DNA of 64,000 nucleotides from Candidatus Poribacteria bacterium. GTDB lineage: Bacteria > Poribacteria > WGA-4E > PCPOR2b. The position numbers were made by a program, and so were the translations under genes. The notes under the pieces are model-generated. The model was not told the DNA's origin. It did no database searches and saw only the letters and a program-made list of their open reading frames with translations. Positions 1 through 16,975 of this stretch are shown here, piece after piece; the stretch's first letter is position 1, and each line of letters opens with the position of its first letter. The DNA lies in NCBI GenBank assembly GCA_965208675.1, contig OZ242351.1:1536001-1600000 (forward strand), given 5' to 3'.

Positions 1-857
1 TGGTCCCTTGGAATGTCGTGACCGCTCTTTTTAGCGATCAGCCGTCTTCCGTTAGACGAGAGAAGAGTTAGCTCCGCCCACATCTCTTGAACAGTTTGCC
101 ACGCTTGATTCAGTAATGCCTCTGGGATGCCGGGTAGAGTAGATGGTCTTTGATTGCCTGTCAGTACCACTAACGGCATTTCTCTCAGTTTTGGAGGTAA
201 AACGCGATGGGCACGTACCTGCGCGTCCGTCTCAGGGCGGGCAACAAATTCATCATAATCTGCGGTTCCCGGTTCCGGCGTGGGGGTCGCGACGTTCCAT
301 ATCTCCGCGGGTATGCGTAGACGTTGATCTTCGTGCGACGGGTCAATCAGCGCCATCCCGACCACTTCGTCCGGATACTGACTAGCGTAAAGACGAACAT
401 GCAATCCACCAGACGAGTGCCCCACCAGAACATAGGGTGCTTCAATTCCTGCATTCACCAGCAATTTATGGAGTTCATTGACAATCTGCTGCCCGGTGCG
501 AGGTGTGGGACCGGGATCGCTGAAGCCGTAACCGGCGCGATCGTAAGAACAGACCCGAGTGAATTTTGCGAGTTCGGGTTGTACATTCTGCCAGTCATCT
601 GAGCCGCCGCCACGTCCGGAATCCAACACCACGGTCGGGCTGCCTTCGCCGGTACAGAGGATATATAACTGGTAGCCGCCCACGTCCACCAGTTTGCCCG
701 GGGGCGCCGCCTTACGTTGGGAATTTTGGCGATTATTTTTGCTCTTCATACCGCTAACTTCCCCTATAGTTTTCGTTGCAGGAACGGCGAGGCAAAATAT
801 ACCTAGCGCAACTGCTAACGCGCATTCAACAGCTAGTACGCTCCGTCGTTTAGACAT
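1..857 (-). CDS. alpha/beta hydrolase with N-terminal signal/TM segment (3' end runs off the window)
   Basis: Translated by hand (not in the ORF track because it has no stop). ATG at 857, MSKRRSVLAVECALAVALGIFCLAV..., motifs PPGKLVDVGG, CSYDRAGYGFSD, nucleophile elbow GHSSGG, catalytic His in SGHDIP near the window edge. Confidence 0.88.
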   Translation of the reverse strand, partial: MSKRRSVLAVECALAVALGIFCLAVPATKTIGEVSGMKSKNNRQNSQRKAAPPGKLVDVGGYQLYILCTGEGSPTVVLDSGRGGGSDDWQNVQPELAKFTRVCSYDRAGYGFSDPGPTPRTGQQIVNELHKLLVNAGIEAPYVLVGHSSGGLHVRLYASQYPDEVVGMALIDPSHEDQRLRIPAEIWNVATPTPEPGTADYDEFVARPETDAQVRAHRVLPPKLREMPLVVLTGNQRPSTLPGIPEALLNQAWQTVQEMWAELTLLSSNGRRLIAKKSGHDIPRD

Positions 858-1085
858 GATGCTTTTCCTTTTGGTTCAAAATTCACTGCGAGTGATGAAG
901 ACGATTGGATTTAATCGAAAAATATACTCCTAAAATCGTGAACGCGCAAAGACGAGCAACCTATTACATGTGTACTTTTAGATTTTGAGCGGGCCAGTGT
1001 TGTCCATTTTGCTAGATTATGCAAGATGCGAAATGCACGTGTCAATGGGAAAAGCGGTGGTGAGCGTTTGTAGGTTGGATTGAGG

Positions 1086-1165
1086 TGTCGGGTTTCACTA
1101 TCTATGAGAGGTGCTGTTTAACCCTAGATCCTTTTTTCTGGTGGATAGAGATGAAGACCTGACAT
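1086..1165. repeat. imperfect intergenic inverted repeat (REP-like)
   Basis: TGTCGGGTTTCA-CTATC ... GATAG-AGA-TGAAGACCTGACA arms, preceded by GTAGGTTGGATTGAG. Confidence 0.4.
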
Positions 1166-1226
1166 TTATTGCCTTCGCTATACGAAAAGTTTATTCTTCC
1201 CTGTCCGGGTGGAATCTATGAACTGG

Positions 1227-4200
1227 TCAATCTGCGAGCAGATATTGAACTTTAGCTTCCAGGTCATGCCCCCAGGCGTCTACGGAAATCTCTCCTGCTG
1301 AGTTAATTAGAACAAACCCAGTTCCCCATCCGATTGCAAATCGATCGAATGTTTCGCCCTTTGCGCCGACGACCTTTGTTGGGCGGTCTAAGCCGATCGA
1401 GTACGACAGCGACTGCTCCGTGATGTGCACTTTGACTTTGTCAACATCAGCCGTAGCGGGACAGATGGCGACGCAGACGAGTCCTTTTTCTCGATAGACC
1501 TCCTGCAAGATATTCAGGAGACGTATTTGTCGAATATGGTCGCGGTGATTCAAATTCCAAAAATGTAGGACAATCGTCTTTCCCTTGAACTCTCCGATGG
1601 ATGCGGGTGAACCGGACAACCACTTGGAAACCGCCAACTCCGGTGCCGGTTTGTTCACGAAAGATTTGAAGCGGTTTTCTGCGGACGCGGCGTATGACCG
1701 CTGCAACTGCTGCTGCGGAGTCGGCCCCAATCTCTCGTCATCCGTCGTCAGAGTAAAGACCAGATCACGTCGATCCACCGCGATATCCTTGAATGTTTTG
1801 CGGTACTTTTTATGATAGACACCCATTGACACGACCGGACCCTTTATGTTCGGTAGTTCAAAATCACCGTACACGTTAGTGTAAGCAACGGGGTATCGGT
1901 AGCTGGAGAAGGGCGTTTCTTCGCCGCCTACCATGACCCGCGCCTGTTCAATCGGTTTGCCTTCGGCGTCCACTACCTTCCCGGCGAGATATGCTATCGC
2001 CTTGACTAGTTCAAAGTCGTGCCGTCGGTTGGTTTTTAAAATCCTGACTTCAAGGTCTGGATACGCCGGATGGAAAATGAACAGCGCGGAAATAACCGCC
2101 ATAGAAAGTTCTTCCATTCGATAATTACCGTTTTCATCGGTGCGGCTTGACCAGTGTTGCCCCGCCTGACTGATGCTAAGTTGCACGCCGCTAACCGGCT
2201 CGCCAGAGTTATCAATGACACGCCCTTCAATAAAAAACTGCCCGCCGGCTGGGAACAGGACGAAATCCGCAATTTGTGTCATCTCCGCTGTGGCGGTGAA
2301 CTGATCGGTTTCAGCATTTCGATACCCGTCTCGTTGCACATAAATTTCGTACTTATCACCAACAATGAGCGAAATATTCTGGAACTGCCCATCGTCATCT
2401 GTCACATCCACAATGGTGTGAGCACCGATGCCTCGTTGATGGTCCCAGTGAATCAGATTGACGTTCGCCAACGGCATCGGTTTGCCTTCACCGTCTATTG
2501 CTCGTCCGGAGACTTCGATCCGCTGTTGCCGTTTCATCCGGATTTCAACCGGCATATCCGGCTGCACCTCAATCTCGACCGTTCCGCGCAATCCCAATTC
2601 GCTATGTACGGCTCTGAGGCCAAGATTACTTCCAACTCGTAGTCCGTCAACAGTGAACCTACCTAACTCATCTGATGTGCCATAGTTTTTAAGACGCATC
2701 TGATCGTTTGTAATTTTCGCGCCGGCCACCGGTTTACCGGTCTCGTCCACAAGCCGGCCGGTCAGATTAATCCCTTTCGAAAACTGAAAATCAACGGTCA
2801 CAGTTTCGCCTTCAACGACCTCCACACGTCTCTCAACCCGTCCGATGTCCAATCTCTCGGTCCAGCCTATATCTTGATAGCCTGCCGGTGTATTAGTGTG
2901 CACGACCGCCTCACCGGGCGCGGCATCAAATTTGTACGCACCAGTTTCATCTGTTATTATATGGTGAGACCCCAGTTGAGATCTGTGCGGACGGGCCGCA
3001 TCATTTAATCTGATAGTATGGCCGGCAAGCGGTTCATTTGTGTCCCGATCGGTCACCCGCCCGGTGATGAAGCCGCTCCGATTCAGGGCTAAATCCACAT
3101 TCGTAACGGTCTGTCCGCCAGTGACTGTAATGAACTCCTCGGGAAGGGCGGTCCACCCGTTTGGCCCCTGATCTAGATAAAGGCTGTATGTGCCGGGGGC
3201 GACATTGTTCAGGCGATATTTTCCCTTTCGAACAGGTGCCTGTCCCGCCTCAATGGTCGGATAGATGCCCTGAAGCAACACCATCGCGCTTTTGACCGGC
3301 CTCTCGGTGTCAGCATAAGTGATGCGCCCCTCAATCCTGCCCTCACGTGTCAGCCGGAAATTGAGCCTTTTTCCGCTGACCGGCACGCTGTGGCGAAACT
3401 CCTTTGCGTATCCTGATGCTTGGACATCAAGGCTTATTTTTGTACCTTGCTGCAATCCAGGGAGCACAAACTCCCCATTCGTGTCCGTCTTGACGGGTTT
3501 TGGCAAGGCATTTTGTGTCAATCTATCTCCGTGTTCCCCTTCGCCATGGAAAACGGATTGAATCAATACCTTAGCGTTCTTAATCGGCTCGCCCGCCTCA
3601 TTCATTACTTTGCCAGTGATGATTCTTGGGCCTTCAAGTTTAATCTCAACGTCTGCCGTACTTTGGATTGGAAATTCCTGCCACCAGATTGCATGATCGG
3701 GATGCGTAACAGCAAGCTGCAGGCGATTCAGTGTGTTCTTGGAGTTGAAATGCCTTGATTTGCGTTTTGAAGGTGAAACTTCAAAGCGAAAGACCCCATC
3801 CTTCCCGGTGCGGGTAAAATACTTACGGTCAGGGTATGTGAAATATACGGATTCGGCATCCCCTCCAACTGGATAGGACAGTATCACATATCGTAGTTCG
3901 GCATCCGCTACCGGCGCACCATCACTGTCAACAACCCGGCCGGAGAATATTAGTTTCTCTTTCTCACCCACCGCTGCTGCTGCACGGCGTTGCGGTTTGG
4001 CGTTCTTTGCACCGAGGTTCCCCGAATCTGACGCTAGTCCAATTGAATTGCGGCTTTGCGCCGTAGAACCGCGATTGGAAGCAGCCAACGGCTGCATTCC
4101 CATCGGGGTGGGTATGCCCGCAATTAACGGACGTGTTGAGTTGGGAGCGGGTGTAAGGAATGTGACTGGAATCGGGTGGCTCGTGTGAGATTGTAACAAC

Positions 4201-4967
4201 CCAATCTGGTTATTTGAGGACACATTCGGCGAATCGCTTCGTCCGCCAATCAGTCCAACAAAAACACACAATGCCGTAATCAGCGAAATTAGTGCTTTGC
4301 TCACCGTTGTGCTACCCCACGTGAACCCTAGGGTTGGAGATGGGATGTGGCGAATCTGCTCCATTAGCTGCATGAGGAATCCTCCTTTGAGTTTGCGGTT
4401 CTTTACGAATCTGCCGTAATGTTCAGACAACGTGCTGCCAAGCTGCAGACGCGCACGACGCAACTTGCTCTTGATAGTATTCACGGAGACACCGAGAAAT
4501 TCTGAAATCTCCTTCAGCGAATAATCACCTGCATAGAACATCGACACGACGAGTCGGCTTTCGTCAGAGAGCTCTGACATTGCCTGCTCAAGATCTACCT
4601 GCCAGTCCTGTGTGGGCACCGTGTGTTCAGGTTGAATCTGTAGTGAGTCGTCCACAGCATGCTCCAGCGCAATCTCGTGCCGACGTTTTTTCGTAATGCG
4701 CTCCAGCCAACGTTTGCATTCGTTGGACATGATTGTATACAGCCAGCTCCGGAAGAGATGCGGATGCCGCAGTTTTTGGAGATGGCGGAATGCCTTTAAA
4801 AAAACCTCTTGCGTAATGTCCTGCGAATCGGCTGCGTTCCGCACTTTCTGATAGGCGTAGGTGTAGACCATGTCCTGATACTTGTGTACGAGCGCACCGA
4901 AGGCGTCTCGATCTCCTGCGAGCGTTTGAGACACTAACTTTTCGTCGGCTGTATACATAATAAGCAT
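1227..4967 (-). CDS. ECF sigma-70 factor fused to TM helix, carboxypeptidase-regulatory-like repeats and C-terminal thioredoxin-like domain
   Basis: Region 2 (DSQDITQEVFLKAF, FRSWLYTIMSN), region 4 (YSLKEISEFLGVSVNTIKSKLRRAR), TM ALISLITALCVFVGLIGG, repeated G-R/K-V-x-D-x-x-G-x-P-V/I and TDxxGxF/Y motifs, C-terminal PAPELAVSKW...KGKTIVLHFW redoxin-like fold. Alternative start 4958. Confidence 0.9.
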   Translation of the reverse strand: MLIMYTADEKLVSQTLAGDRDAFGALVHKYQDMVYTYAYQKVRNAADSQDITQEVFLKAFRHLQKLRHPHLFRSWLYTIMSNECKRWLERITKKRRHEIALEHAVDDSLQIQPEHTVPTQDWQVDLEQAMSELSDESRLVVSMFYAGDYSLKEISEFLGVSVNTIKSKLRRARLQLGSTLSEHYGRFVKNRKLKGGFLMQLMEQIRHIPSPTLGFTWGSTTVSKALISLITALCVFVGLIGGRSDSPNVSSNNQIGLLQSHTSHPIPVTFLTPAPNSTRPLIAGIPTPMGMQPLAASNRGSTAQSRNSIGLASDSGNLGAKNAKPQRRAAAAVGEKEKLIFSGRVVDSDGAPVADAELRYVILSYPVGGDAESVYFTYPDRKYFTRTGKDGVFRFEVSPSKRKSRHFNSKNTLNRLQLAVTHPDHAIWWQEFPIQSTADVEIKLEGPRIITGKVMNEAGEPIKNAKVLIQSVFHGEGEHGDRLTQNALPKPVKTDTNGEFVLPGLQQGTKISLDVQASGYAKEFRHSVPVSGKRLNFRLTREGRIEGRITYADTERPVKSAMVLLQGIYPTIEAGQAPVRKGKYRLNNVAPGTYSLYLDQGPNGWTALPEEFITVTGGQTVTNVDLALNRSGFITGRVTDRDTNEPLAGHTIRLNDAARPHRSQLGSHHIITDETGAYKFDAAPGEAVVHTNTPAGYQDIGWTERLDIGRVERRVEVVEGETVTVDFQFSKGINLTGRLVDETGKPVAGAKITNDQMRLKNYGTSDELGRFTVDGLRVGSNLGLRAVHSELGLRGTVEIEVQPDMPVEIRMKRQQRIEVSGRAIDGEGKPMPLANVNLIHWDHQRGIGAHTIVDVTDDDGQFQNISLIVGDKYEIYVQRDGYRNAETDQFTATAEMTQIADFVLFPAGGQFFIEGRVIDNSGEPVSGVQLSISQAGQHWSSRTDENGNYRMEELSMAVISALFIFHPAYPDLEVRILKTNRRHDFELVKAIAYLAGKVVDAEGKPIEQARVMVGGEETPFSSYRYPVAYTNVYGDFELPNIKGPVVSMGVYHKKYRKTFKDIAVDRRDLVFTLTTDDERLGPTPQQQLQRSYAASAENRFKSFVNKPAPELAVSKWLSGSPASIGEFKGKTIVLHFWNLNHRDHIRQIRLLNILQEVYREKGLVCVAICPATADVDKVKVHITEQSLSYSIGLDRPTKVVGAKGETFDRFAIGWGTGFVLINSAGEISVDAWGHDLEAKVQYLLAD

Positions 4968-5008
4968 CTAATCCTAAAACGAAGCATGGAAGCCCTATTT
5001 GCATAACA

Positions 5009-5051
5009 TAGACACATCTAGTGTACCAGAGGTTGCACCGAGTGGAAAAAA
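5009..5051 (-). promoter_or_regulatory. putative ECF autoregulatory promoter TGCAAC-N18-GTCTA with upstream T-tract
   Basis: Same motif, spacing and T-tract upstream of all three sigma paralogs; AAC/GTC cores typical of ECF promoters. Confidence 0.7.
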
Positions 5052-5246
5052 TAATGATTCACGCCCCATCCCAATCAAAAAAATGAATGGTTGCTGAATT
5101 CAAGGAATAGCATCAAAGAGATGTCTCAAACGATTAAATGCCGCCTGAATGAGAATTTGAAACCTGCAATCGCGAAAGGGCTTTGGAACGCAGCGTGAAT
5201 GGGACAACTACGTCAAAGGTGGGGTTTATAGCGGACGACGATGAAA

Positions 5247-5538
5247 AGACATCTTTCCTAATTAACTCAATGTGGTTGACAAAACTGAAGCGACATCGGG
5301 CTTTGAAATTATTTTGGAAAGTTGTCAAATGTGTTTTCTGAACACGCCTGAAAAAACTATCTTCGATTTGACGAACGAAAATTCGCTCTGGGGCTTTGGC
5401 TTATGACTGCTGGTGCGGCGTTAAGGGCAACCACAAGGGTTGCCCCTACAGCGTATTAGCCCAATGTGAGGGTAGTCGTTTTATACCTGTCGCCCCGCTG
5501 GGGCTATCGGGCGGTGGAATTATTTTGGAAAGATGTCT
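5247..5538. mobile_element. MITE-like element with 12-bp terminal inverted repeats and internal REP-like hairpins
   Basis: AGACATCTTTCC (5247-5258) / GGAAAGATGTCT (5527-5538); extra direct copy of the right end at 5307-5329; hairpins GGGCAACC-acaa-GGGTTGCCC (5425-5445) and GCCCC-gct-GGGGC (5492-5504). Confidence 0.45.
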
Positions 5539-5888
5539 AAAGACAAACCAAATTTGCGATAACTAGACAACCGGCCGGTATTGGGTATGGCGATAACTTT
5601 CTCCGTGCTAAGATGGACTTCACCGGGAACGTTTATTTTGGACCGGCAGGCCGTAATTGGAGGGGTTATCCTGCGGCTAATATTGACGCGAGAAGTTTTC
5701 GACTTGGACGAAATGGAAAAATAAGGTGGGATTTTGACCGTTGAGGCGTTTACGTAAATTCAGGCCGCAAACAAGCCATTTGCAGAACCGCGGAGGTCAT
5801 AGATAGAGATTCACATTCGACCCAAACTACACTGTGGCAATTATGATAGATTAGCGAAGCGTATCAAAATTTCGCCGAGATCGACGAT

Positions 5889-7130
5889 TTACTTTGTCCG
5901 TGTTGTCTTTCCGGTCGTGCTGTCCTTTTCGATGATAGCTATGTGCGGCAGGCGCCACTCTATGCTTGCAGGGCCAACGTCGAACCATTCACCCGAAAGT
6001 CCCATCGAAACGAAATCTTCCTCGCCCCGGTCTTTATCGTGCGGTTCATGGGGCGCCCAGTTTGTGAATGTCACCGGCTCACTGTTTGCCCAAACCCATT
6101 CCCCTTCGTTCGCATAATCGGTCAGTCCAATCCAGCACCGATGCGGGCCAAAAGTTCTTGAAATCCAATCCTGCTCTGCTGCATCGTTGATTGCAACGAG
6201 ATACCCATATTCGGCGGCGGCTTGAGAGTTGGCTTCATCCCAACTCTCGCTACTAATTCGCTTGTACGCGTGCCCATTTGCCGGATTCACCACCCACGCT
6301 GACCCGCCGCCCTGCGGTGACGTTGATACTTCTGCAGAAACGTCGACTCGACCAGTGGGACCTTCAGGCCAATTCGGAAGTCTGTCGAGCGTGAAAGCCA
6401 AATCTTCTCTGTCTTCTCCTTTTCTTAGCAGGAAGGGATCTGCTGACGCCGAAAACCTGTGATAGTTCACCGTCATTGTGTAGATTGCCGATTCATCTAC
6501 GTAGTATTTAAAGTAGCCGTCAGCGTCTGTTTCACTCGACGAACTTGAGCTGCCGCTACCCGTCCCGTCGGGCGTACGATGGTTTACGCTGACATTTATC
6601 CTCACGCTGGAAAGCGGGGTGCCATTGAGAAACACAATGCGTCCCCGAATGTAATTCCGCAATTTCACTCTGACTTCGACATTCTCAACGTGCACGTCCG
6701 GCTTAATAGCGAACGCGATTCCCTGCCAAGGCGAATATTCGTGCCGGTACACGGTCAGTGCCGCAACCTTTACGGAAATGATTTCGCCGCTGGTCCCGGA
6801 CGAATGATAAAACTTGGTAGCCGGTGTTAGTCGGACTTTTGCCGGCGGGATGTTGCTCATCGAAAAACGTCCAATTTCGTCAGAGTGCGATTCTGAAAGT
6901 GTGATGAAGGTTCCTTCGACTGATTCAAGTGAAAACGGTAAAAGGGATAGCCCAAATCCTGCAACCGGATTGCCTTCTGAATCAACAACACGGCCGGACA
7001 GTGTAGAAGTACCGTCCAAAGCCAAGCCCTGCAACGATGCGGCGAATGAAAATACCATTATCCCAATAAGTAGCAACAGGTTTTCTCGCCTAAACGAAAT
7101 GCACAAACACCTGACATGTGACCAGTCCAT
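5889..7130 (-). CDS. secreted protein: signal peptide + carboxypeptidase-regulatory-like repeats + C-type lectin domain
   Basis: SD GAAGGAGG; hydrophobic N-terminus; LSGRVVDSEGNPV; lectin motifs NGHAYK, SWDEA, LVAINDAAEQDWI, WIGLTD, FTNWAPHEP; colinear with the C-terminal half of 9065..11248. Confidence 0.85.
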   Translation of the reverse strand: MDWSHVRCLCISFRRENLLLLIGIMVFSFAASLQGLALDGTSTLSGRVVDSEGNPVAGFGLSLLPFSLESVEGTFITLSESHSDEIGRFSMSNIPPAKVRLTPATKFYHSSGTSGEIISVKVAALTVYRHEYSPWQGIAFAIKPDVHVENVEVRVKLRNYIRGRIVFLNGTPLSSVRINVSVNHRTPDGTGSGSSSSSSETDADGYFKYYVDESAIYTMTVNYHRFSASADPFLLRKGEDREDLAFTLDRLPNWPEGPTGRVDVSAEVSTSPQGGGSAWVVNPANGHAYKRISSESWDEANSQAAAEYGYLVAINDAAEQDWISRTFGPHRCWIGLTDYANEGEWVWANSEPVTFTNWAPHEPHDKDRGEEDFVSMGLSGEWFDVGPASIEWRLPHIAIIEKDSTTGKTTRTK

Positions 7131-7202
7131 GGTAGATGCCTCCTTCGGAATGTTTTATGCGACCGAGGACGAGTCCCTCGGTGAATGGCCCAAATCGGTC
7201 AT

Positions 7203-7231
7203 TTGACGAAGCCAATTAGGGTTTGATTTCC
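7203..7231 (-). promoter_or_regulatory. possible ECF-type promoter GGAAAT-N18-GTCAA
   Basis: Same 18-nt spacing and similar cores to the motif upstream of the three sigma genes; single, degenerate instance. Confidence 0.35.
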
Positions 7232-7369
7232 TGACAACCCGGTCATATTACCGGGGAATGGCTACGCGAAGGCCTTGTCACTCACGTACCAAACGAGCTG
7301 TAAACGCTGTTACTAGCTGGATATACTCTTAGAAATCGTTTTGCGTTCAATGAGTCTAATTATCGGGTG

Positions 7370-8839
7370 TCAACGCCGGTTCTTCCCGGGCGATTCACGT
7401 CTTTTCGTTTCGGAGTCATTACGCCCTTCATAGGATTCATGTCGATTTTCATTGGGTTCGCTCCGGTCTATTTTACGCTCGTCATCATCATGAAGTATTT
7501 CAGGTTCATCCGGCAGATTTAGAATAGAAGTCGGGTCATCTGTATCTTCCAACGACTTCAGTGACCTCTCCAACTCATTCACCTCTACCCCGCCGGTCGA
7601 TTTCCAATCCTCAGCTTGCTTCATCTGGTTTTCCAATTCGAGTGGGACGATTGGCGCGGGGATCGGCTGTTCCAAATCCGCCGGAAATTCCGGCATATCT
7701 AGCGTCGGTCCGGCATGGCGCGTTGCTGCCGCAGGCGCGGAGTCGTCCGCTGCCAAGTCGGATTCGGAGGTCCAATGTGATGAGCGGGATACAGGTTTCG
7801 GTTCGGCAACGTTCGCAGGTTGCGAATCTGTTCCTGACGGAAGCACTACGTCGGACTCGGAACGGGCGATCTCCCGTCTATCATCATCAAATTTGCCGGC
7901 AAAATTCCCCCATAGCTTCGCCATTCCTCGCCTCGGTGCACCAGCGGGTTTGCCGTCCGGACCAATAAAGCCAATCTTCACATGTTCGGGCAGTTGCTCC
8001 GCGAAAGGGAAAGGCTGCAAATGTTTCATTATAGCATCCGTATCTTGAGCAGAAAGTCCCATAGCGGGCATAACTATATCTCCCATGTCTACACCGCCGT
8101 TACCGTTCAACTTAAAATAGGTGGTGTCCGCTCTCATCGGAAAACGCGTCCCATCTTTGGCTCTGGCAATCGTCACAAATTTGCCTTCATTCCATTGTTG
8201 TGCGAAAGTTGGGTCTTTTAATGCTTCTTTCACATAATAGTGCGTCTCCAAAAAATGCTGGATCCTAGTTTCTTCAAACTGTGCCGACGACGTGTCCGCT
8301 GGCAGCCCCATACGTTCTAGCACACTGTTTTTGTAATCGGCATCATGTCCGTACAGGGCTTGCTCGAAAAACTGCTGCTTTGAATGTAGCAGATTGAACC
8401 TGTACATGAGGAATGAATTGTATTCCGCACCGTTCACGATTAGCAGGCCTTTATCCAGCAACATCTGCAGGAATTCTGCACGCGGATAGGCTTGGTCGAC
8501 ATTTGCTAAGTCGATGCCGCTGAAATTAATCGTCTGCGACTCAACCCATGTGTCAAAATTAGTGTCATGCGCTTCCATAAGGGCTTCGACGGATTGCGGG
8601 CTTTGAAATGAGGTTGAATCGGAAATGTGGCGCATTCGAGTCAACTCCTCGTCCGCACCTTTGACGACGGTTGTCCACCAATAGTCGCGCAAATAGTTGC
8701 TTGTTACAATCTCTTCCGGTGAACCAACGTTCTGGCTAAATACAACATGCTGTCGATGCAAAAGTGCGGCGAAAACAGCCGCCGCAACAACTCCCAGACC
8801 AATCACTACAATCTTCCACTTTGACAAGGAAACCAACAT
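7370..8839 (-). CDS. hypothetical membrane-anchored protein with acidic low-complexity C-terminal tail
   Basis: 489-aa ORF, SD AAAGGAG, N-terminal TM IVVIGLGVVAAAVFAALL; no recognisable family motif. Confidence 0.75.
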   Translation of the reverse strand: MLVSLSKWKIVVIGLGVVAAAVFAALLHRQHVVFSQNVGSPEEIVTSNYLRDYWWTTVVKGADEELTRMRHISDSTSFQSPQSVEALMEAHDTNFDTWVESQTINFSGIDLANVDQAYPRAEFLQMLLDKGLLIVNGAEYNSFLMYRFNLLHSKQQFFEQALYGHDADYKNSVLERMGLPADTSSAQFEETRIQHFLETHYYVKEALKDPTFAQQWNEGKFVTIARAKDGTRFPMRADTTYFKLNGNGGVDMGDIVMPAMGLSAQDTDAIMKHLQPFPFAEQLPEHVKIGFIGPDGKPAGAPRRGMAKLWGNFAGKFDDDRREIARSESDVVLPSGTDSQPANVAEPKPVSRSSHWTSESDLAADDSAPAAATRHAGPTLDMPEFPADLEQPIPAPIVPLELENQMKQAEDWKSTGGVEVNELERSLKSLEDTDDPTSILNLPDEPEILHDDDERKIDRSEPNENRHESYEGRNDSETKRRESPGKNRR

Positions 8840-9064
8840 GATAGGTGCTCCTTTCTCCTAATACTTAATTGTTCGTGGAGATTCCAGTTGATTAAACCTA
8901 AACCCCCACGCTTCAGGCGTTTTTTTACTCATTCAAACTGGTTATTAGGATAGTTGTTCGTGAAAGTGTGTTTGGATTTACACATTGTAGCGCTGCGAAC
9001 ACTCAGTAATTCGATCGTTCATGTGTCAAAAGGCAATTTTTCACAGAATTGGGTAAATTTCGGG

Positions 9065-11248
9065 TTAGTTATCCTCAATGGGTGGTGAAGAAGCTAAGTT
9101 CTGCCTTTCGATGATAGCCATGCGGGTCATCCGCCACCGCGGGCTTTCGGGTCCAACATTAAACCAATTTCCATTCGGATTGATACCCATGAAGACGTAA
9201 TCTTCTTCACCGGGCGGCGACTCAGTCGGTTCATTGGGCGCCCAGTTCGTGTAAGTCGTCAGTTCGCCGCTGGACCATCGCCATTCCCCCTCCTTTTCGA
9301 AATCAGTTAGTCCAATCCAATAGGGCGTAGTTCCAAAAACTTTCACCAGCCAACTTTGCTCGGAGGCGTCGTTAATCGAAACCAAGTATGCATCCTCGGT
9401 AATGGCTTTCGCTTGAGCATCTTCCCAACTTTCACAATGAATGCTTCGATAGGCGTGTCCGTTTTCAGGATTCATCACCCAAGCTCCATCTCGGTCCGGG
9501 GGCGCGGCGCTATCCGGAGTTGGCTCAATGGGAATTGGCGGGCTGTCAAGCGTTATGACCAAATCATCATGCCGTTGACCGGTTTCGAGAGCAAACTGCT
9601 CCGACGTCGCCAATAGTCCTTGAAATTCAACCGCTACTGCGTAAAACCCAGGTTCATTCACATAGTGCACAAAGTAACCCGCTTCGTCTGTGCGTGGCAA
9701 TCCTCCGCTACTGCCCGTGCCTTCCTCATCAAGTGTACGCCATCGCACGCGAATCAGAACTTTCGCCTTGGCAAGCGGTGTGCCGTCAGCGAAAACAACC
9801 TGACCCCGAATGCGCATCCGCGGTTTAACTACAATTTCAAAATTTTCAAGGTGTGTCCCCGGCTCAATGGTAAATGTAATCCCACCGTGAGGGGGCGGTT
9901 GCTGGGAATCCGCATAAAAAATCATCGCGCCAGTATCAATGGACAAAACCTCCGCGTCTACAAAATTTTCTTGGTTGTAGCTATGCGGAGGCATGTCATC
10001 GCTTGTTACAGGATTGGGCTGTGCCATGAACTGGAGAGGCCCGGGTTTGATGCCAGAAATCGAAAACTGTCCCTCTTCGTCCGTGTCCGATTTGAACGTG
10101 TACGGCTGTGCGCCCCTCCTGAACCAATCATAACTGAACATTGGCATGATTTTGCCGTCAAATGACATCAGCGGTCCGACAGCTATGGGGAACCCCGCGA
10201 TTGGATTGCCGTCTGTGTCGACCACGCAGCCCGATAAGGCAATTTTATCGGACCCGCTCACCGATGCAGCAGTTGCGAATTGCGGACTTGGGGATTTGGC
10301 GCCCCCAGCCACGGCAGTGGTTTCTCGGTCAACTGGCTCGGAGTTCGGCTCCACTGAGGCGCGGTTGACGACCGCCAATGGATGCTTCCCCGACGAAGTA
10401 GGAATTCCCGTAATTGACGGGCGTGCGGAGAATGGCGGCGAAGCAAGCAACGCGACCGGGATCGGGCGGTAGGCGTCTGGCGGCGACAGTGCTAATTGAT
10501 TGCCTGTGGACGCTTTTGGTGAGATGTCTACTGCTCCAATAAGTCCGATCAAGATACACAGCGCCGTAATCAAAGAAAATAGGGTCTTGCTAACAGTTGC
10601 ACTGCTCCACGTGAACCCAACTGTTGGCGGTGGGATATGGCGTACCTGCTCCATAAGTTGCATGAGGAATCCTCCTTGGAGTTTGCGGCTTTTCATGAAT
10701 CGACCGTAGTGTTCAGACATCGAATCACCTAGTTGCTGCCGTGCTCGATGTAATTTGCCCCGTGCGGTGTTAACGGAGACGCCGAGGAATTCAGAGATTT
10801 CCTTCAGCGAACAGTCGCCCATATAGAACATCGACACCGCCACGCGATTGTCATCGGGAAGCGCGGAGATAGCCCGCTCTAAGTCCACCTGCCAACCTTC
10901 CGTTGCGGCCGTGTGCGCGGGTTCAATCTGTAACGCATCGTCCGTAACTTCGTCTAACGCAATTTCGCGCCGGCGTGTTTCCGTGACCCGCGCCAGCCAC
11001 CGGTTGCACTCGTTGGACATGATTGTATACAGCCAACTTCGGAACCGATGCGGGTGCCGCAGTTTGCAAAGATGCCGATACGCCCGGAGGAAAACCTCCT
11101 GCGTGATGTCCTGCGAGTCGGCTTCGTTCCTCACCTTTTGAAAGGCGTAGGTGTAGACCATGTCCTGATACTTATGCACGAGCACGCCGAAGGCGTCTCG
11201 ATCCCCCGCGAGCGTTTGAAACACTAAGTTTTCGTCGGGTGGATTCAT
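9065..11248 (-). CDS. ECF sigma-70 factor fused to TM helix, carboxypeptidase-regulatory-like repeats and C-type lectin domain
   Basis: Sigma regions 2/4 highly similar to 1227..4967; TM TLFSLITALCILIGLIGAV; lectin motifs WIGLTD, YTNWAPNEP. Start set at ATG 11248 (GAGG SD, aligns with paralogs); ORF track start 11281. Confidence 0.9.
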   Translation of the reverse strand: MNPPDENLVFQTLAGDRDAFGVLVHKYQDMVYTYAFQKVRNEADSQDITQEVFLRAYRHLCKLRHPHRFRSWLYTIMSNECNRWLARVTETRRREIALDEVTDDALQIEPAHTAATEGWQVDLERAISALPDDNRVAVSMFYMGDCSLKEISEFLGVSVNTARGKLHRARQQLGDSMSEHYGRFMKSRKLQGGFLMQLMEQVRHIPPPTVGFTWSSATVSKTLFSLITALCILIGLIGAVDISPKASTGNQLALSPPDAYRPIPVALLASPPFSARPSITGIPTSSGKHPLAVVNRASVEPNSEPVDRETTAVAGGAKSPSPQFATAASVSGSDKIALSGCVVDTDGNPIAGFPIAVGPLMSFDGKIMPMFSYDWFRRGAQPYTFKSDTDEEGQFSISGIKPGPLQFMAQPNPVTSDDMPPHSYNQENFVDAEVLSIDTGAMIFYADSQQPPPHGGITFTIEPGTHLENFEIVVKPRMRIRGQVVFADGTPLAKAKVLIRVRWRTLDEEGTGSSGGLPRTDEAGYFVHYVNEPGFYAVAVEFQGLLATSEQFALETGQRHDDLVITLDSPPIPIEPTPDSAAPPDRDGAWVMNPENGHAYRSIHCESWEDAQAKAITEDAYLVSINDASEQSWLVKVFGTTPYWIGLTDFEKEGEWRWSSGELTTYTNWAPNEPTESPPGEEDYVFMGINPNGNWFNVGPESPRWRMTRMAIIERQNLASSPPIEDN

Positions 11249-11311
11249 ACCACACACCTCAACCGAAATGATACACCACAACCCCGCAATAACCCAGACA
11301 AAACTACTTAT

Positions 11312-11355
11312 TAGACCCGCTGCGCGGATAAAAAGTTATGTCTTAGCGAAAAAAA
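11312..11355 (-). promoter_or_regulatory. putative ECF autoregulatory promoter CATAAC-N18-GTCTA with upstream T-tract
   Basis: Conserved with 5009-5051 and 15720-15763. Confidence 0.7.
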
Positions 11356-11567
11356 TTCGGGTGTGGCTGCATTCCTGATGAAGCAACGAATTACAATTCC
11401 TCATCGTGCAAAAGCGTAAGTATTAAAGAATAAGCAACAGTTTAAACACCTGGCTGTTGTATCTGGTTAGGGAGGGAATAAATGGTTAGCGAGAGTCCGT
11501 GTTATAGTCACTGCAACTAAAAATTACACATCACCTTGAATCCGATTGACAACGGGTGCCAACTCTC

Positions 11568-11837
11568 CTTATCAGGCTTAAAAATACCCACAATCTTAAT
11601 GAGGGTACTAGAAACAGCACTCGACGTAACCTACGACCTCCCCTAACCCCTCCTTAGTAAGGAGGGGAATGATTATTGTAATGAACTGCCAAGGCGTTCT
11701 CACTGTAGGAGAGGCATCTAAAACTATCGCGCTCCCTATTCGGTCGGTTGATTCTCGACAATCGGGAGAAGGATTTCCCGCCCACAGCGTGGCTCCGTGC
11801 GACACTCTGGACTTATGGGTAATAGTGCGCTTATCAG
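11568..11837 (-). mobile_element. MITE-like element, copy 1 (~250 bp, flanked by CTTATCAG direct repeats)
   Basis: Reverse complement aligns end to end with 44240..44510; degenerate TIR GCTTAAAAATACCCACA / TATGGGTAATAGTGCG; CTTATCAG at 11568-11575 and 11830-11837. Confidence 0.75.
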
Positions 11838-11976
11838 GGGGGCTGAATGTGTGTAAATATGAATGGAATTGACTATAATCTTCGGCGTGACAGATGGGTT
11901 CATGCATTGGGTAAATTATACTCAACCACAACAGGAAACTCGTTCCCTGTTGTGGTTGAGGTCATAGAAGTTCGGA

Positions 11977-14900
11977 TCAATCCGCAAGCAGCGTTTGAAT
12001 CTGAATTTCCAGATCGTCCGCCCAAGCGCGCCCGGCGATCTCTCCCGCCGAATTAATTAGAACGAATGGAGGCCCCCCTCCGATAGCGTATCGATCGAAG
12101 GTTTCGCCTTTCGCGCCAGCGACCGCTGTTGAGCGGTCTAAGCCGACTGAATACGACAGCGACTGTTCCGCGATGTGCCGTTTGATTTCCTCGACCTCTG
12201 TTGAGGCGGGGCAGATAGCGGCGCAGGTGAGCCCTTTTTCACCAAACACCTCCTGCAAAAGATTCAATAGCCGTACCCATTGGACACGGTCGTCGACGTA
12301 GCTCAAATCCCAGAAACACAGGACAATCGTCTTTCCTTCCAAATCCGCGATAGAGACCGGTGGACCAGACAACCACTCCGCAACCGCCAACTCGGGCGCA
12401 GGTTGGTTCATCAAGGATTTTAACCGTTCTTCGGCAGATTCGACGTATGACCGGCGAGCTTTCCGCTGTGCTTGTTGCTCCGCGGTCGGCTGCGGTCTCG
12501 GCTCGGGTGGTGTCAAGGTCAAAACAAGATCGCGCTGATTCACCGCGATATCTTCAAAAATCTTGTAGTCACGATCTTTGCCGACATAAATCGAAACAGT
12601 TGAATCTTTGATGTGTTTGAGTTCAAATTCGCCCTGCCAGTCGGTATCGACGGCAGGGAGTATATGGCCGGATGAGAGGTCTTCTTGCGGATCTACGAAC
12701 ACTGTTGCGCCTTCAATCGGTTTGCCGTCAGCGTTTACAACTTTACCAGCTAGGTATCCGTTCGCTTTGACTAACACCAAGTCGTGACGCTGATTGGTCT
12801 TTAACATCCTAAATGTATGGAATGCGTACTCAGGATGCTCAACATTCAAATCGATAATGAAGTTCATGAGAAGGTTTTTCAACTCATAATAACCATTCTC
12901 ATTGGTGCGCGCATCCCAGTGTTGTGATTGATGGTGTGTGTTTACGTGGGCGCCGTTGACCGGTTGACCGGAGGTATCCGTGACGCGGCCCTGAATGTAA
13001 AACTGACCTGCAACTGGCGCCAGTGTAAAATCTGCAATCTGGTCCATCTCTAGCGTAGCGGTGAACATCTCGGTTTCGGCGTTCCAATATCCTTCAGCGC
13101 TTGCAGACATAACGTACTGGTCGCCGACAATGAGCGCAATCTCCTGGAAACGTCCATCACCGTCTGTCAGAGCGACTGTTGTACTCCGTCCTATGTTTCG
13201 TTGGCTATCCCAGCGCATCAAAGTTATGTTCACCGATGGAATAGGTTCACCCTTACCGTTGATCACTCTTCCGGCGACCTTAACCTGATGGTACTCTCTC
13301 ACTTGAATCTCAACTGACGCGCCCTGCAGAACTTCAACCTCCGCCGTTCCACGCAATCCCAATCCGTTATGCTCCGCTCTGAGGACGAGATTTTGTCCGA
13401 TTCGCAATCCCCGTACAGTAAATTCTCCCTGTGCGTCCGACGTTCCGTATTCCTTAAACAATTTTCGCACATCGGAAATGTCGAGAATCTTCGCACCACT
13501 GATCGGTTCGCCCGTTGCCGTCAACACTCGACCAATTAAGTCCAACCCTTTCGAGAACTGAAAACCAACAGTGACAGTTTCGGCTTCAATAACATCCACA
13601 TATTTCTTGATCTGTCCGATATCCAGATAGCCCTCCGGTGCGCTGGTGTAGACCATTGCCCGGCCGGGAGCGGCGCGGAAGCGATAGGCACCCGTTTCAT
13701 CTGTGTTCGTCCCGTGAACCGATGCTTGGGATTGCGGCCGAGCGGCGTCGTGAAAGCTGATATGGTGGTTTGCGATGGGATCGCCTGTGTCTCGGTCGGT
13801 TACCCGCCCGGTGATATACCCACCCTGTACCAATGTTAGGTCTGTCCAGACGGTTAGCCCCTCAACGACCTTAAGGAGTTCTTTGGCTACTGCTGTCCAC
13901 CCGTCAGGTCCCTCATGAAGAAAGAGGTTGTACGTACCGGGAGGAATATTTTTCAGGAGGTAATGCCCGTTTAGATCAGTAATTGTTCGCGCCCAACCTT
14001 CGGTAGGATGGATACCCTCAACCATGACGGTAGCGTTTTTGACCGGCTCACCGGTACCTGAGAAGCTGAGGTTTCCCTCCACCCTGCCTTCGCGCTTGAG
14101 TCGAAACTCCAGCCGCTCTGTGCTGACCAACACACGTCCAAGTCGTTCCTTTGCGTATCCAGGGCCTTTAGCATAGAATACAATTGCACCGCCTTGCGGC
14201 AGTCCGCGGAGAACGAATTGTCCATTTGCATCAGTCTTGGCGGGCTGGATGGGGATAACGTCAATCGTCAATATTTTCCCGATATCGCTTGAAATTGGGT
14301 CACCATCGAACAACATCCCAATTTGCGCCTCCGCGTTTTCAATCGGTTCGCCCGCTTCGTTCATAATGGTGCCCGTTATACTCCCCGGAATTCCCAGTTG
14401 AATCTCAACATCAGAGGTGCCCTCGGGTAGGAGATTTTGCCAGCCGATAGCGTGTTTGGGGTGCATGGCGATGATGTCTACGCGATCCCATTTCTCGAGT
14501 TTTGGACGAAGACACTCAAAATGGAACGTCCCATCCGCGCCCGTGCGGGTGACAGACTTGGACAGATCGCGCTTTATTGAGTAAAAGACTTCGGCATCCG
14601 CTACCGCCGCGCCGCCGCTGTCAACGACCCGACCGGAGTAGACAAGTTTTTCGCCCGCGTTTCCCGCTGCAGTTGCCGCGAGTCGCGGTACGGAATTCTT
14701 CCCACCGCGGTTCGACGAAACTGACTCTTTGTCAATTGATTGGCTGCTTTGCCGTGTGGGTGCGCGGTTGGCGGCAGCCAGCGGGTGCTTTCCCGATGGG
14801 GTTGGAATTCCTGAAACCGAGGAATTCGCTGCGTATTGACCCGGTGTGTAAAACGACACCTCAATTGGCCATCGGCTCGTATCTGACTGCGGCCGCCAAA

Positions 14901-15654
14901 TCTGGTTTCTTGACAACTCTGTTGATGTGTGGATTCGTCCACCAATCAATCCAATTAAGACGCACAATGCTGTTATCAGCGAAAACAGAGTTTTGCTAAT
15001 CGTTGTGCTGCTCCAAGTGAAAGTCATGGCTGGAGTTGGGATGCGGCGAATTTGCTCCGTTAACTGCATGAGAAACCCTCCTTTGAGTGTGTGGCTCTTC
15101 AAGTATCTGCCGTATCGTTCAGACATAGCGCTGCCCAGTTGCTGGCGCGCCCGGTACAACTTCCCCTTTACGGTGTTCGCGGAGACACCGAGAAATTCCG
15201 AGATTTCTTTCAGCGAGCATTCGCCCATATAAAACATCGACACCGCCACCCGATTATCATCGGAGAGCACGGAGATTGCCTGTTCAAGGTCTACCTCCCA
15301 ACCCGCTGTGGGGACGGTGTGCGCGGGTTCATCTTGTAGAGCATCGTCTGCAGCGTCCTCCAGCGCAATTTCACGATGGCGTTTTTTCGACACCTGCGTC
15401 AGCCAGCGGTTACACTCGTTCGCCATGATTGTATAAAGCCAACTTCGAAACCGGTGCGGATGCCGCAGTTGATAGAGATGACGGTATGCCCGCAGAAAAA
15501 CCTCTTGGGAGATGTCCTGCGAATCGGATTCGTTTCTCACCTTTTGGAAAGCGTAGGTATAGACCATGCCCTGATACTTTCGCACGAGCATGCCGAAGGC
15601 GTCTCGATCGCCCGCCAGAGTTTGAGACACCAATATTTCGTCGGATGAATACAT
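11977..15654 (-). CDS. ECF sigma-70 factor fused to TM helix, carboxypeptidase-regulatory-like repeats and C-terminal thioredoxin-like domain
   Basis: Full-length paralog of 1227..4967 with the same architecture. ATG 15654 (MYSSDE); ORF track start 15663. Confidence 0.9.
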   Translation of the reverse strand: MYSSDEILVSQTLAGDRDAFGMLVRKYQGMVYTYAFQKVRNESDSQDISQEVFLRAYRHLYQLRHPHRFRSWLYTIMANECNRWLTQVSKKRHREIALEDAADDALQDEPAHTVPTAGWEVDLEQAISVLSDDNRVAVSMFYMGECSLKEISEFLGVSANTVKGKLYRARQQLGSAMSERYGRYLKSHTLKGGFLMQLTEQIRRIPTPAMTFTWSSTTISKTLFSLITALCVLIGLIGGRIHTSTELSRNQIWRPQSDTSRWPIEVSFYTPGQYAANSSVSGIPTPSGKHPLAAANRAPTRQSSQSIDKESVSSNRGGKNSVPRLAATAAGNAGEKLVYSGRVVDSGGAAVADAEVFYSIKRDLSKSVTRTGADGTFHFECLRPKLEKWDRVDIIAMHPKHAIGWQNLLPEGTSDVEIQLGIPGSITGTIMNEAGEPIENAEAQIGMLFDGDPISSDIGKILTIDVIPIQPAKTDANGQFVLRGLPQGGAIVFYAKGPGYAKERLGRVLVSTERLEFRLKREGRVEGNLSFSGTGEPVKNATVMVEGIHPTEGWARTITDLNGHYLLKNIPPGTYNLFLHEGPDGWTAVAKELLKVVEGLTVWTDLTLVQGGYITGRVTDRDTGDPIANHHISFHDAARPQSQASVHGTNTDETGAYRFRAAPGRAMVYTSAPEGYLDIGQIKKYVDVIEAETVTVGFQFSKGLDLIGRVLTATGEPISGAKILDISDVRKLFKEYGTSDAQGEFTVRGLRIGQNLVLRAEHNGLGLRGTAEVEVLQGASVEIQVREYHQVKVAGRVINGKGEPIPSVNITLMRWDSQRNIGRSTTVALTDGDGRFQEIALIVGDQYVMSASAEGYWNAETEMFTATLEMDQIADFTLAPVAGQFYIQGRVTDTSGQPVNGAHVNTHHQSQHWDARTNENGYYELKNLLMNFIIDLNVEHPEYAFHTFRMLKTNQRHDLVLVKANGYLAGKVVNADGKPIEGATVFVDPQEDLSSGHILPAVDTDWQGEFELKHIKDSTVSIYVGKDRDYKIFEDIAVNQRDLVLTLTPPEPRPQPTAEQQAQRKARRSYVESAEERLKSLMNQPAPELAVAEWLSGPPVSIADLEGKTIVLCFWDLSYVDDRVQWVRLLNLLQEVFGEKGLTCAAICPASTEVEEIKRHIAEQSLSYSVGLDRSTAVAGAKGETFDRYAIGGGPPFVLINSAGEIAGRAWADDLEIQIQTLLAD

Positions 15655-15719
15655 AACACCCACCTAACCAAAATTGAGAAAAAACCAACGCCGCAACGAT
15701 AATGGGCGCGACTATTATC

Positions 15720-15763
15720 TAGACACACTTTGTGGATTGGAGGTTATGCTGGGTAGAAAAAAA
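15720..15763 (-). promoter_or_regulatory. putative ECF autoregulatory promoter CATAAC-N18-GTCTA with upstream T-tract
   Basis: Conserved with the other two sigma paralogs. Confidence 0.7.
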
Positions 15764-16080
15764 TTTGGCGGGCAATCTCCGCGCAGGCGGATAAATTGTC
15801 TTTGGTCGTTATAATCTGCTTGAATTTATGAGGGCAAATCCCGGTTCTAGGCTATGGTTCTTGAAAGCGAGAGCAGAGTTAACGTGCATTTTTGCCGGGT
15901 GTGAGGAAAATGCTGCGGCTACATTTTTCACCCCCGATATGACCAAAGCCAATCTTTGCGAAGTCGAACGTAGCCAAGGTGTGCGGCAGCATTTCATGCT
16001 AGGAGCGTTTTATTCAACGGTTGGAGAGTTTTAATTCTCTCCAACCGAAATTTGAAGGAATAGGACAATGCGAAGCAACT

Positions 16081-16917: not shown

Positions 16918-16975
16918 ATCAATTTATCCTCCTTTTGTAAATGAAATAGTGAACAAGACAGCTAACACTCCGTGC

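Follow-up and report, generated by a model that had tools for sequence, protein, structure and literature searches.

The stretch of DNA analysed here, referred to below as the window, comprises 64,000 nucleotides from a sponge symbiont, a Candidatus Poribacteria bacterium (assembly GCA_965208675.1, contig OZ242351.1, positions 1,536,001 to 1,600,000). Its minus strand carries three genes in which an extracytoplasmic function (ECF) sigma factor shares a single open reading frame (ORF) with a large sensor-like extension. At the junction between these two parts, each gene contains a strong Shine-Dalgarno (SD) sequence followed by an in-frame ATG, and this site is probably a second, internal translation start. 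Gene 1 (P0001, 1246 aa) occupies 1227..4967, with a likely start at ATG 4967 or ATG 4958 as judged from the ORF list, its translation, and Pfam matches. Gene 2 (P0002; translation and Pfam) lies within an ORF at 9065-11281 and, with ATG 11248 as its likely start, extends over 9065..11248. Gene 3 (P0003), which has the same Pfam architecture as gene 1, occupies 11977..15654 of an ORF at 11977-15663, with a likely start at ATG 15654. All three are read from the minus strand.

The three proteins match Sigma70_r2 (E 6e-15 to 2e-13), Sigma70_r4_2 (E 3e-13 to 1e-11), and Sigma70_ECF in Pfam. Regions 2 and 4 are present in each and no region 3 or region 1 match is listed, as is characteristic of ECF (group 4) sigma factors. 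In gene 1, region 2 (residues 26-90) and region 4 (residues 125-176) together span 4440..4892 (minus strand), and are followed by a linker, one transmembrane (TM) helix, CarboxypepD_reg repeats, and a C-terminal AhpC/TSA-like domain, according to Pfam and AlphaFold2. The order in gene 2 is an ECF sigma factor, a TM segment, CarboxypepD_reg, and a C-type lectin domain (Pfam). An AlphaFold2 model of gene 1 residues 1-262, built on a 56-row alignment, has a mean pLDDT of 70. Past region 4, the model gives short helices at residues 179-189 and 197-206 (pLDDT about 74-81). The next helix, at residues 222-240 (4248..4304, minus strand), is hydrophobic and is predicted to be the TM helix from this secondary structure, of low pLDDT, and from its hydrophobic sequence. 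Taken with the translations, the predicted helix yields a sigma domain, a single TM segment, and an extracytoplasmic domain in one uninterrupted ORF. The linker of the fusion genes is ~45 residues long and lacks a Pfam anti-sigma domain. Likewise, no match to FecR, zf-HC2, or RskA was found in the three proteins at E<=0.01, and no anti-sigma family was found.

The junction peptide, (K/Q)GGFLM, sits 18-23 residues beyond the end of Sigma70_r4_2 in the three genes. In gene 1, the minus strand reads AAAGGAGGATTCCTCATG at 4388-4371, where AAGGAGG (4381..4387) is encoded by codons K194-G195-G196 and is followed 7 nt later by the in-frame ATG of Met199 (4373-4371; 4371..4373 in forward numbering), the proposed start of a 1048-aa sigma-less product (1227-4373). 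The tryptic peptide that spans this start is GGFLMQLMEQIR. Gene 2 reads CAAGGAGGATTCCTCATG at 10678-10661, with AAGGAGG at 10677-10671 and an in-frame ATG at 10663-10661 (together 10661..10677, minus strand), for a putative sigma-less product of 532 aa. Gene 3 reads AAAGGAGGGTTTCTCATG at 15084-15067, with AAGGAGG at 15083-15077 and an in-frame ATG at 15069-15067 (together 15067..15083, minus strand), and its putative sigma-less product has 1030 aa. An earlier reading of this DNA from its letters alone, referred to here as the sequence-only reading, had described a full AAGGAGG 7 nt before an in-frame ATG in all three fusions, and the minus-strand reads bear this out.

Since the 3′ end of the genome's 16S rRNA reads CACCTCCTTTCT, the AAGGAGG motif pairs in full with the organism's anti-SD. 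Predicted SD:anti-SD duplexes at the internal ATGs of genes 1, 2, and 3 have energies of -12.1, -11.2, and -12.6 kcal/mol, compared to -4.0, -9.4, and -8.1 kcal/mol at the genes' own starts, so that the internal SD is the stronger one in each gene, as the sequence-only reading had held. Thus, each site combines an SD complementary to the organism's anti-SD with an in-frame start at a 7-nt spacing, which is within the 5-10 nt expected of a start site. Such sites are rare in the genome, which was scanned as a single 4.89-Mb contig with ORFs of >=200 aa taken from stop to stop and no gene caller. AGGAGG occurs 5-9 nt upstream of only 15 of 18,042 internal in-frame ATGs. Three of these 15 are the window sites and three more are the joins between sigma factor and extension in other ECF fusion genes. 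The organism uses SDs: a strong SD (in the -20 to -4 window) is found at 28% of crude first starts versus 3.3% of internal in-frame ATGs.

Other signals were sought in the same region. There were no matches to a sigma-70-like promoter in window positions 4200-5200, although Poribacterial promoters may differ from that consensus, and none to Rfam at the gathering score in window positions 1-17000. Programmed frameshifting stimulated by the SD was rejected by inspection, there being no conserved slippery heptamer and no nearby stop in the other frames. The would-be slip site reads GGA TTC CTC in two of the window genes and GGG TTT CTC in the other, and many homologs have GGT TTT CTC there.

Conservation of the junction was followed in the homologs of the window genes, referred to as family A, by searching the whole genomes of 40 relatives (16 of them from one genus) with residues 1-260 of gene 1. 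The family is present in two families of the order. Its homologs are fused in 41 genomes, and the matches that span the junction are all in one open frame, with the exception of two copies that have lesions elsewhere in the sigma part. A core set was formed from all hits with E<=1e-80 among the loci retrieved plus the two window paralogs. It holds 45 sequences that share 62-91% identity with gene 1 over 260 aa, and seven more distant loci (L024-L030) were excluded from its counts. Codon 199 is ATG in 44 of the 45 sequences and GTG in the remaining one. The codon for Gly195 is GGA in 41 and GGG in one, with Ala in place of Gly in three. For Gly196, whose third base falls outside GGAGG, all of GGT (27), GGG (10), and GGA (8) are used. 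Seven other conserved Gly columns of the same alignment use two to four codons each, and do so freely. The residue at codon 194 varies between K, R, Q, and T, and its third base is A in 43 sequences and G in two.

The sequence-only reading had suggested comparing the use of GGA at the first Gly with genome codon usage. GGA makes up 23.7% of Gly codons genome-wide, and only 12.7% of Gly-Gly pairs begin with it, as against 41 of 42 at Gly195. It had also stated that randomised Gly codons or an unconserved Met would speak against a start site; in actuality, the first Gly is nearly always GGA and codon 199 is a start codon throughout, with ATG in 44/45 and GTG in 1/45. Changes were then counted by Fitch parsimony on a FastTree phylogeny made without the junction columns, for the 63 columns in which a fourfold codon family is common to >=38 sequences. 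With a single change at its third base, Gly195 ranks first among these 63 fourfold sites, the others ranging from 3 to 17 changes, with most at 5-13. For Gly196, the tree gives 10 changes at the third base. By this parsimony test, as distinct from a codon model, the SD is under purifying selection at its synonymous positions, as is the start.

A larger family-A set, to which loci found by pattern scan were added, holds 71 distinct sequences and is biased in favour of Met because one of the six scan patterns contained Met. In this set, the first Gly codon is GGA in 62, GGG in two, and replaced by Ala in seven; codon 199 is ATG in 70 and GTG in one; and GGAGG is present in 62/71. In 65 of 69 distinct homologs, pairing is stronger at the internal SD than at the start of the gene itself, with medians of -13.3 and -7.4 kcal/mol, respectively.

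Could these elements be present by coincidence? On this explanation, K-G-G-F-L-M is needed as a peptide, GGA is an inherited codon, and the remainder is local codon bias. The window copies are in fact paralogs and 16 of the 40 relatives are from one genus, and a related juxtamembrane peptide, L-x-P/G-x-F-T, is conserved in distant paralogs that have no SD. A need for the peptide does not account for residue 194, where the amino acid varies and the third base is always a purine (A in 43/45). It also sits poorly with the nearest outgroup. This is L108, which shares about 46-51% identity across some 1,050 aa and whose junction reads LKGGFVA, encoded as AAA GGC GGG TTT GTA GCG. This outgroup retains K-G-G-F with its glycines as GGC GGG, has Ala (GCG) in the position of Met, and is without GGAGG. 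Furthermore, unrelated fusion families place the same RNA motif at the same place in five peptide contexts, as detailed below. Coincidence is consequently given very little credence.

A second explanation is that the site is a non-functional fossil, left when a sigma gene and its downstream partner were fused by loss of a stop codon, such that the SD and ATG of the partner simply remain. Something close to the presumed ancestral arrangement exists in this genome. The stand-alone ECF genes are followed by ORFs whose starts lie between -14 and +42 nt of the sigma stop and whose N-termini are Cys-rich, zinc-finger-type, and anti-sigma-like, as judged by eye, and the geometry of the fused genes is that of a stand-alone ECF gene and its partner minus the stop codon. 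In addition, the elements have been lost in some lineages. Set against this, the fusion predates the split of two Poribacterial families, with no unfused family-A copy in the 41 genomes. A relic would not be expected to hold GGA at 41/42 in the face of 12.7% in genomic Gly-Gly pairs, to show one change at the fourfold site inside GGAGG where others on the same tree show 3-17, or to keep AGR codons for Arg in 17/17 junctions of another fusion family (family H, below). The fossil explanation is thus improbable, if somewhat less so than coincidence. Neither chance nor a decaying fossil accounts for the junction motif, and a neutral relic is not plausible. The sequence-only reading had left a choice between a fossil and two isoforms. 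Of these, two isoforms are the better supported, because the SD and start show synonymous conservation, because SD and start co-vary, and because the arrangement recurs in unrelated fusion families, and the pure fossil is disfavoured. An origin by fusion of a sigma gene with a downstream partner is itself plausible, since the stand-alone ECF genes of the genome have the SD and start of the partner in the same place.

The junction is also a region of weak predicted RNA structure. In 51-nt folding windows averaged over the 45 homologs, the weakest structure within the first ~280 codons lies at alignment columns 185-204 (the ATG is column 198), with -6.1 to -7.8 kcal/mol compared to a mean of -10.5 (sd 1.9). 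The GC content drops to 41-49% there, which makes it the 5′ region's most AT-rich part. This is consistent with a start site, although not decisive, as a linker rich in Lys, Asn, and His could produce the same picture.

Some relatives carry family-A copies with a broken sigma part. These include L112 (genome G038), with TAG at codon 38; L113 (genome G029), with a stop and a frameshift in the first 71 codons; L105, with a frameshift near codon 172; and L102, with stops in region 4. The lesion of L112 is recent, given that a near-identical ortholog is intact. In two sigma-broken copies inspected, the next 1150-1200 sensor codons are open, a spot check and not a systematic screen for lesions of the sensor part. 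The use of such sigma-dead copies as evidence for independent expression of the sensor was set aside as anecdotal.

The same design is found in other ECF fusion families of the genome. For each of its 27 ECF ORFs of >=330 aa, the region from -5 to +75 codons around the end of region 4 was scanned, and the 15 nt upstream of every in-frame ATG, GTG, or TTG were scored against the anti-SD. A start with a duplex of <=-9.5 kcal/mol was present at the junction of 25 of the 27, which represent roughly nine paralog groups and hence are not independent. Control windows of equal size yielded such starts in 8/152 cases in the sensor part and 3/27 in the sigma part. At <=-10 kcal/mol, the corresponding counts were 21/27 junctions, 5/152 sensor windows, and 0/27 sigma windows. 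By comparison, ~1.5% of sampled internal ATGs reach <=-9.5 kcal/mol.

Across families, the SD motif is encoded through Gly-Gly, Glu-Glu, or Arg-Arg, in at least five peptide contexts. The K-G-G-F-L-M of family A is one of these. Several TM families have (K/Q/S)-E-E-x-x-M, encoded as AAGGAGGAA, and a large TM family (family G) has S-G-G-L-T-V-M-K, encoded as TCAGGAGGA...ATG. Family H, represented by two adjacent genes with WD40 and leucine-rich repeat (LRR) extensions, has E-R-R-K-T-M (GAAAGGAGGAAGACCATG), and family I has K-R-R-I-S-Q-M, in a gene whose extension matches no known family. Fourteen distant paralogs lack the SD and Met at the position homologous to Met199, yet have a strong SD and ATG 10-15 codons upstream.

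Homologs from relatives show how well each version is kept. In family G, 37 distinct homologs, one of them 38% identical, have ATG in 36 and GTG in one, with GGAGG in 31. In family H, an ATG follows AGGAG in 17/17 distinct junctions, and both Arg codons are always AGG or AGA, although AGR accounts for 17.6% of Arg codons genome-wide. In family I, six copies have both SD and ATG, and four copies from another taxonomic family (f3) have neither. Among many Poribacterial genomes, 47 distinct fused sequences fitted the pattern of the (K/Q)-E-E family (f2-type). A strong SD accompanies 25 of their 33 start-capable codons (24/32 ATG plus the single TTG) versus 1 of 14 non-start codons, and in this lone case there is an ATG at the very next codon. 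Where Met is replaced and the strong SD kept, the replacements are GTG, GTG, and TTG, while replacements without a strong SD encode Ile, Arg, His, Ala, Val (GTC), or Leu (CTT). These co-variation and family counts were taken without correction for relatedness.

One locus, L114 (G000:C1:3224932-3228213), holds two adjacent ECF fusion genes whose sigma parts are 86% identical and whose junction reads GAAAGGAGGAAGA(C/T)CATG ACT TCC. Past the junction the two diverge, one continuing into WD40 repeats and the other into LRRs. It looks as if a sigma module, including its candidate internal start, was placed before different genes.

An alignment-based scan of contigs, with one genome per species, indicates how the fusions are distributed. 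Of the best 80 ECF relatives (L198-L277), 34 are fused to a long C-terminal ORF, and 33 of these loci are titled Poribacteria and one 'uncultured bacterium'. No fusion was found among the best 80 in loci titled with other phyla, all of which end 3-28 codons past region 4. Within that sample, the habit of fusing ECF sigma factors looks strongly enriched in Poribacteria.

The other families also bear on a third explanation, in which something other than initiation preserves the SD-like motif, such as a ribosome pause at the domain boundary before TM synthesis, and the Met is simply a residue of a juxtamembrane helix. SD-induced ribosome pausing is a disputed phenomenon. The motif does lie exactly at the domain boundary in every family, the Met may matter structurally, as it is part of the AlphaFold2 helix 197-206 (pLDDT near 80), and it is kept in seven family-A sequences that have no SD. 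Membrane targeting cannot be the general reason, though, because families H and I carry the same SD and ATG before extensions (WD40, LRR, or other) that are soluble and in whose sequence no TM segment is apparent (no TM predictor was applied). A pause also leaves unexplained why the SD is weak or absent wherever a start codon is absent, why the Met replacements that keep the SD are GTG, GTG, and TTG, and why the spacing is 5-10 nt. A pausing role is accordingly considered unlikely, though less so than a fossil.

Internal initiation at codon 199, yielding a sigma-less sensor beside the tethered sigma factor, is the most probable reading of these comparisons, with appreciable room left for doubt. 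Several observations weigh against it. First, the sequence-only reading had proposed a search for homologs that are split just before the Met, and neither a split nor a stand-alone sigma-less copy of family A came to light in the 41 genomes. Second, in a family-A sub-lineage with the peptide R-A-G-F-L-M (L036, L044, L061, L062, L064, L066, and L103; 7 of 70 distinct sequences), the first Gly is replaced by Ala and the SD is lost (-3.8 to -6.6 kcal/mol), with no strong replacement nearby, and the Met is kept. Retention of the Met in these SD-less copies means that constraint on the protein alone can hold it, and that the SD is dispensable in some copies. Third, the counts are not phylogenetically independent, since sixteen genomes come from one genus and paralogs are frequent, and the threshold of -9.5 kcal/mol was a post hoc choice, although the picture is the same at other thresholds. 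Finally, a strong site is present in only about half of the f2-type members (15/27; 24/32 among those with an ATG), and K-E-E peptides are naturally SD-like. A search of sequencing runs listed four that contain the locus, from a single study, and none of the four is recorded as RNA.

If internal initiation does occur, each of the three genes would encode two products. The full protein, in which a single TM helix tethers the ECF sigma factor to a large extracytoplasmic sensor, would come from ribosomes starting at the weak 5′ site. By analogy with the IutY system described below, its sigma domain would stay inactive at the membrane until released by regulated proteolysis. The stronger internal initiation region (AAGGAGG, a 7-nt spacer, and AUG at codon 199), situated in an AT-rich stretch with little structure, would allow independent starts. 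The resulting short product would consist of a tail of ~23 residues, the TM helix, and the whole sensor, and would probably be in excess over the fusion. We infer initiation at the site, the product ratio, and what the short form does. Most likely, it acts as a sigma-free receptor that sets the threshold for sigma release, either by competing for any factor that engages or cleaves the fusion or by co-assembling with such a factor.

The sequence-only reading had given the short form a cytoplasmic tail of ~26 aa, the TM, and the whole sensor. This composition stands, apart from the length of the tail, which is ~23 residues from M199 to the predicted helix at 222-240. It had also offered the label of anti-sigma for the short form, for which no support was found. 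A classical anti-sigma factor is unlikely because the tail has only ~23 residues and the linker has no Pfam anti-sigma domain. A complex prediction that paired the sigma domain (residues 4-192) with residues 199-245, the short form's tail and TM, gave a score of 0.00, which speaks neither for nor against an interaction.

Both halves of this arrangement have precedents. In-frame internal starts at domain boundaries (in E. coli) and fused ECF sigma/anti-sigma proteins are already established. IutY of Pseudomonas putida, an ECF243 sigma/anti-sigma hybrid, is activated through cleavage by Prc and RseP, which frees the sigma domain (PMC5411451, PMC8999054). IutY and the predicted fused groups ECF48, ECF52, and ECF53 resemble the Poribacterial genes in having an N-terminal ECF sigma factor, one TM segment, and an extracytoplasmic C-terminal part. 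They differ in that IutY has a FecR-type and ECF52 a zinc-finger anti-sigma domain, whereas the Poribacterial genes have neither, but instead a linker, CarboxypepD_reg, and an AhpC/TSA-like or C-type lectin domain. Proteolytic release of sigma was shown for IutY and is assumed by analogy for the Poribacterial genes. The accessible text of the IutY paper makes no mention of an internal start, and the terms 'translation' and 'start codon' have 0 occurrences in it.

In E. coli, in-frame internal starts at domain boundaries have been reported in arcB (ArcB-C), infB, clpB, mrcB, and rpn genes (bioRxiv 10.1101/520783). These resemble the sites described here in that an SD-like sequence and an in-frame start lie inside an ORF at a domain boundary, are conserved among species, and give an N-terminally truncated second product, which is proposed in the present case. 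The likeness extends to arcB, which also encodes a membrane signalling protein with an internal start at a domain boundary. The E. coli sites were shown by Ribo-RET and western blots, whereas the Poribacterial ones are known from sequence comparison. The short forms differ as well: that of ArcB is a soluble output domain, while the Poribacterial short form would keep the membrane sensor and lose the sigma output. The consulted part of 10.1101/520783 contains nothing comparable to a site that recurs throughout an entire class of paralogous fusions within a single phylum.

Ordinary two-gene ECF sigma/anti-sigma operons, in which the final codons of the sigma gene contain the SD of the partner, also have a downstream SD and start directly past region 4. 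In contrast to these, the fusions lack the stop codon, such that the upstream frame runs into the partner, and have no recognisable anti-sigma domain. Pairs of in-frame starts that give a full protein and a shorter modulator are known from the Tn5 transposase and its inhibitor and from the S107/S105 holin of phage lambda. The proteins of these pairs are unrelated to the fusions, and any antagonism in the Poribacterial genes is only putative. Full-text literature searches turned up no account of an ECF fusion with an internal start, their coverage not extending to the supplementary files of the ECF classification paper, where group descriptions might bear on it. A full-text search likewise found no literature that combines Poribacteria with ECF sigma factors.

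Sensor-fused ECF sigma factors are treated as 'one-component' devices with a fixed 1:1 stoichiometry of sensor to output. Were free sensor also made from a conserved internal start, this stoichiometry would be tunable, and the short form could set thresholds, buffer noise, or act as a decoy, as excess anti-sigma factor does in two-gene systems. The presence of the site in 25/27 fusion genes and at least five sequence contexts points to a rule for how such fusions arise and persist. A further consequence, if true, is that automatic annotation overlooks dozens of proteins per genome.

A more far-reaching possibility, for now a doubtful one, is that the ECF fusion genes of Poribacteria systematically encode two products, with the sigma-less form as the principal, working protein and the minority of sigma-tagged copies as built-in sentinels. 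The main protein may then be an enzyme or binding protein, located in the membrane or secreted, or else a soluble WD40 or LRR protein. When the population of this protein is engaged, damaged, or cleaved, the sentinels would free their sigma factor and so provide transcriptional feedback. This would explain why sigma modules with the same junction lie ahead of quite different domains, for example in the adjacent WD40 and LRR genes. If correct, 'sigma-tagging' by means of a weak upstream and a strong internal start would be a general and evolvable way of coupling the fate of almost any protein to gene regulation.

Stand-alone relatives of the sensors also exist. In family G, a sigma-less gene at G000:C1:2771645-2772439 (minus strand) starts with MKFGTLHK exactly where its fused paralogs have their internal Met (MKVGTVPK). 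This gene, the one such copy inspected, has AGGAG upstream and in-frame stops before its Met. In the window, P0004 (5889..7130, minus strand; 413 aa) is a free-standing paralog of the gene 2 sensor, with CarboxypepD_reg and C-type lectin matches in Pfam and 39% identity to the sensor part of gene 2 over 407 aa (BLASTP, E 8e-88). Its N-terminus is hydrophobic and resembles a signal peptide by eye, and it has no sigma part and no TM tether. As P0004 adjoins the fusions and is without sigma, the sensor module also exists as a free-standing gene, the product of which is apparently secreted. Between gene 2 and P0004 lies another minus-strand ORF (7370-8839; 489 aa), with no Pfam match at E<=0.001, an N-terminal hydrophobic segment, and an acidic, low-complexity tail. 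In five of the relatives (G010, G011, G020, G022, and G024), open frames of ~980-1040 aa are located 3-6 kb from fused genes and match only the first sensor repeats (query residues 125-222), with the tail and TM not matched. These frames may be further free sensor-like paralogs.

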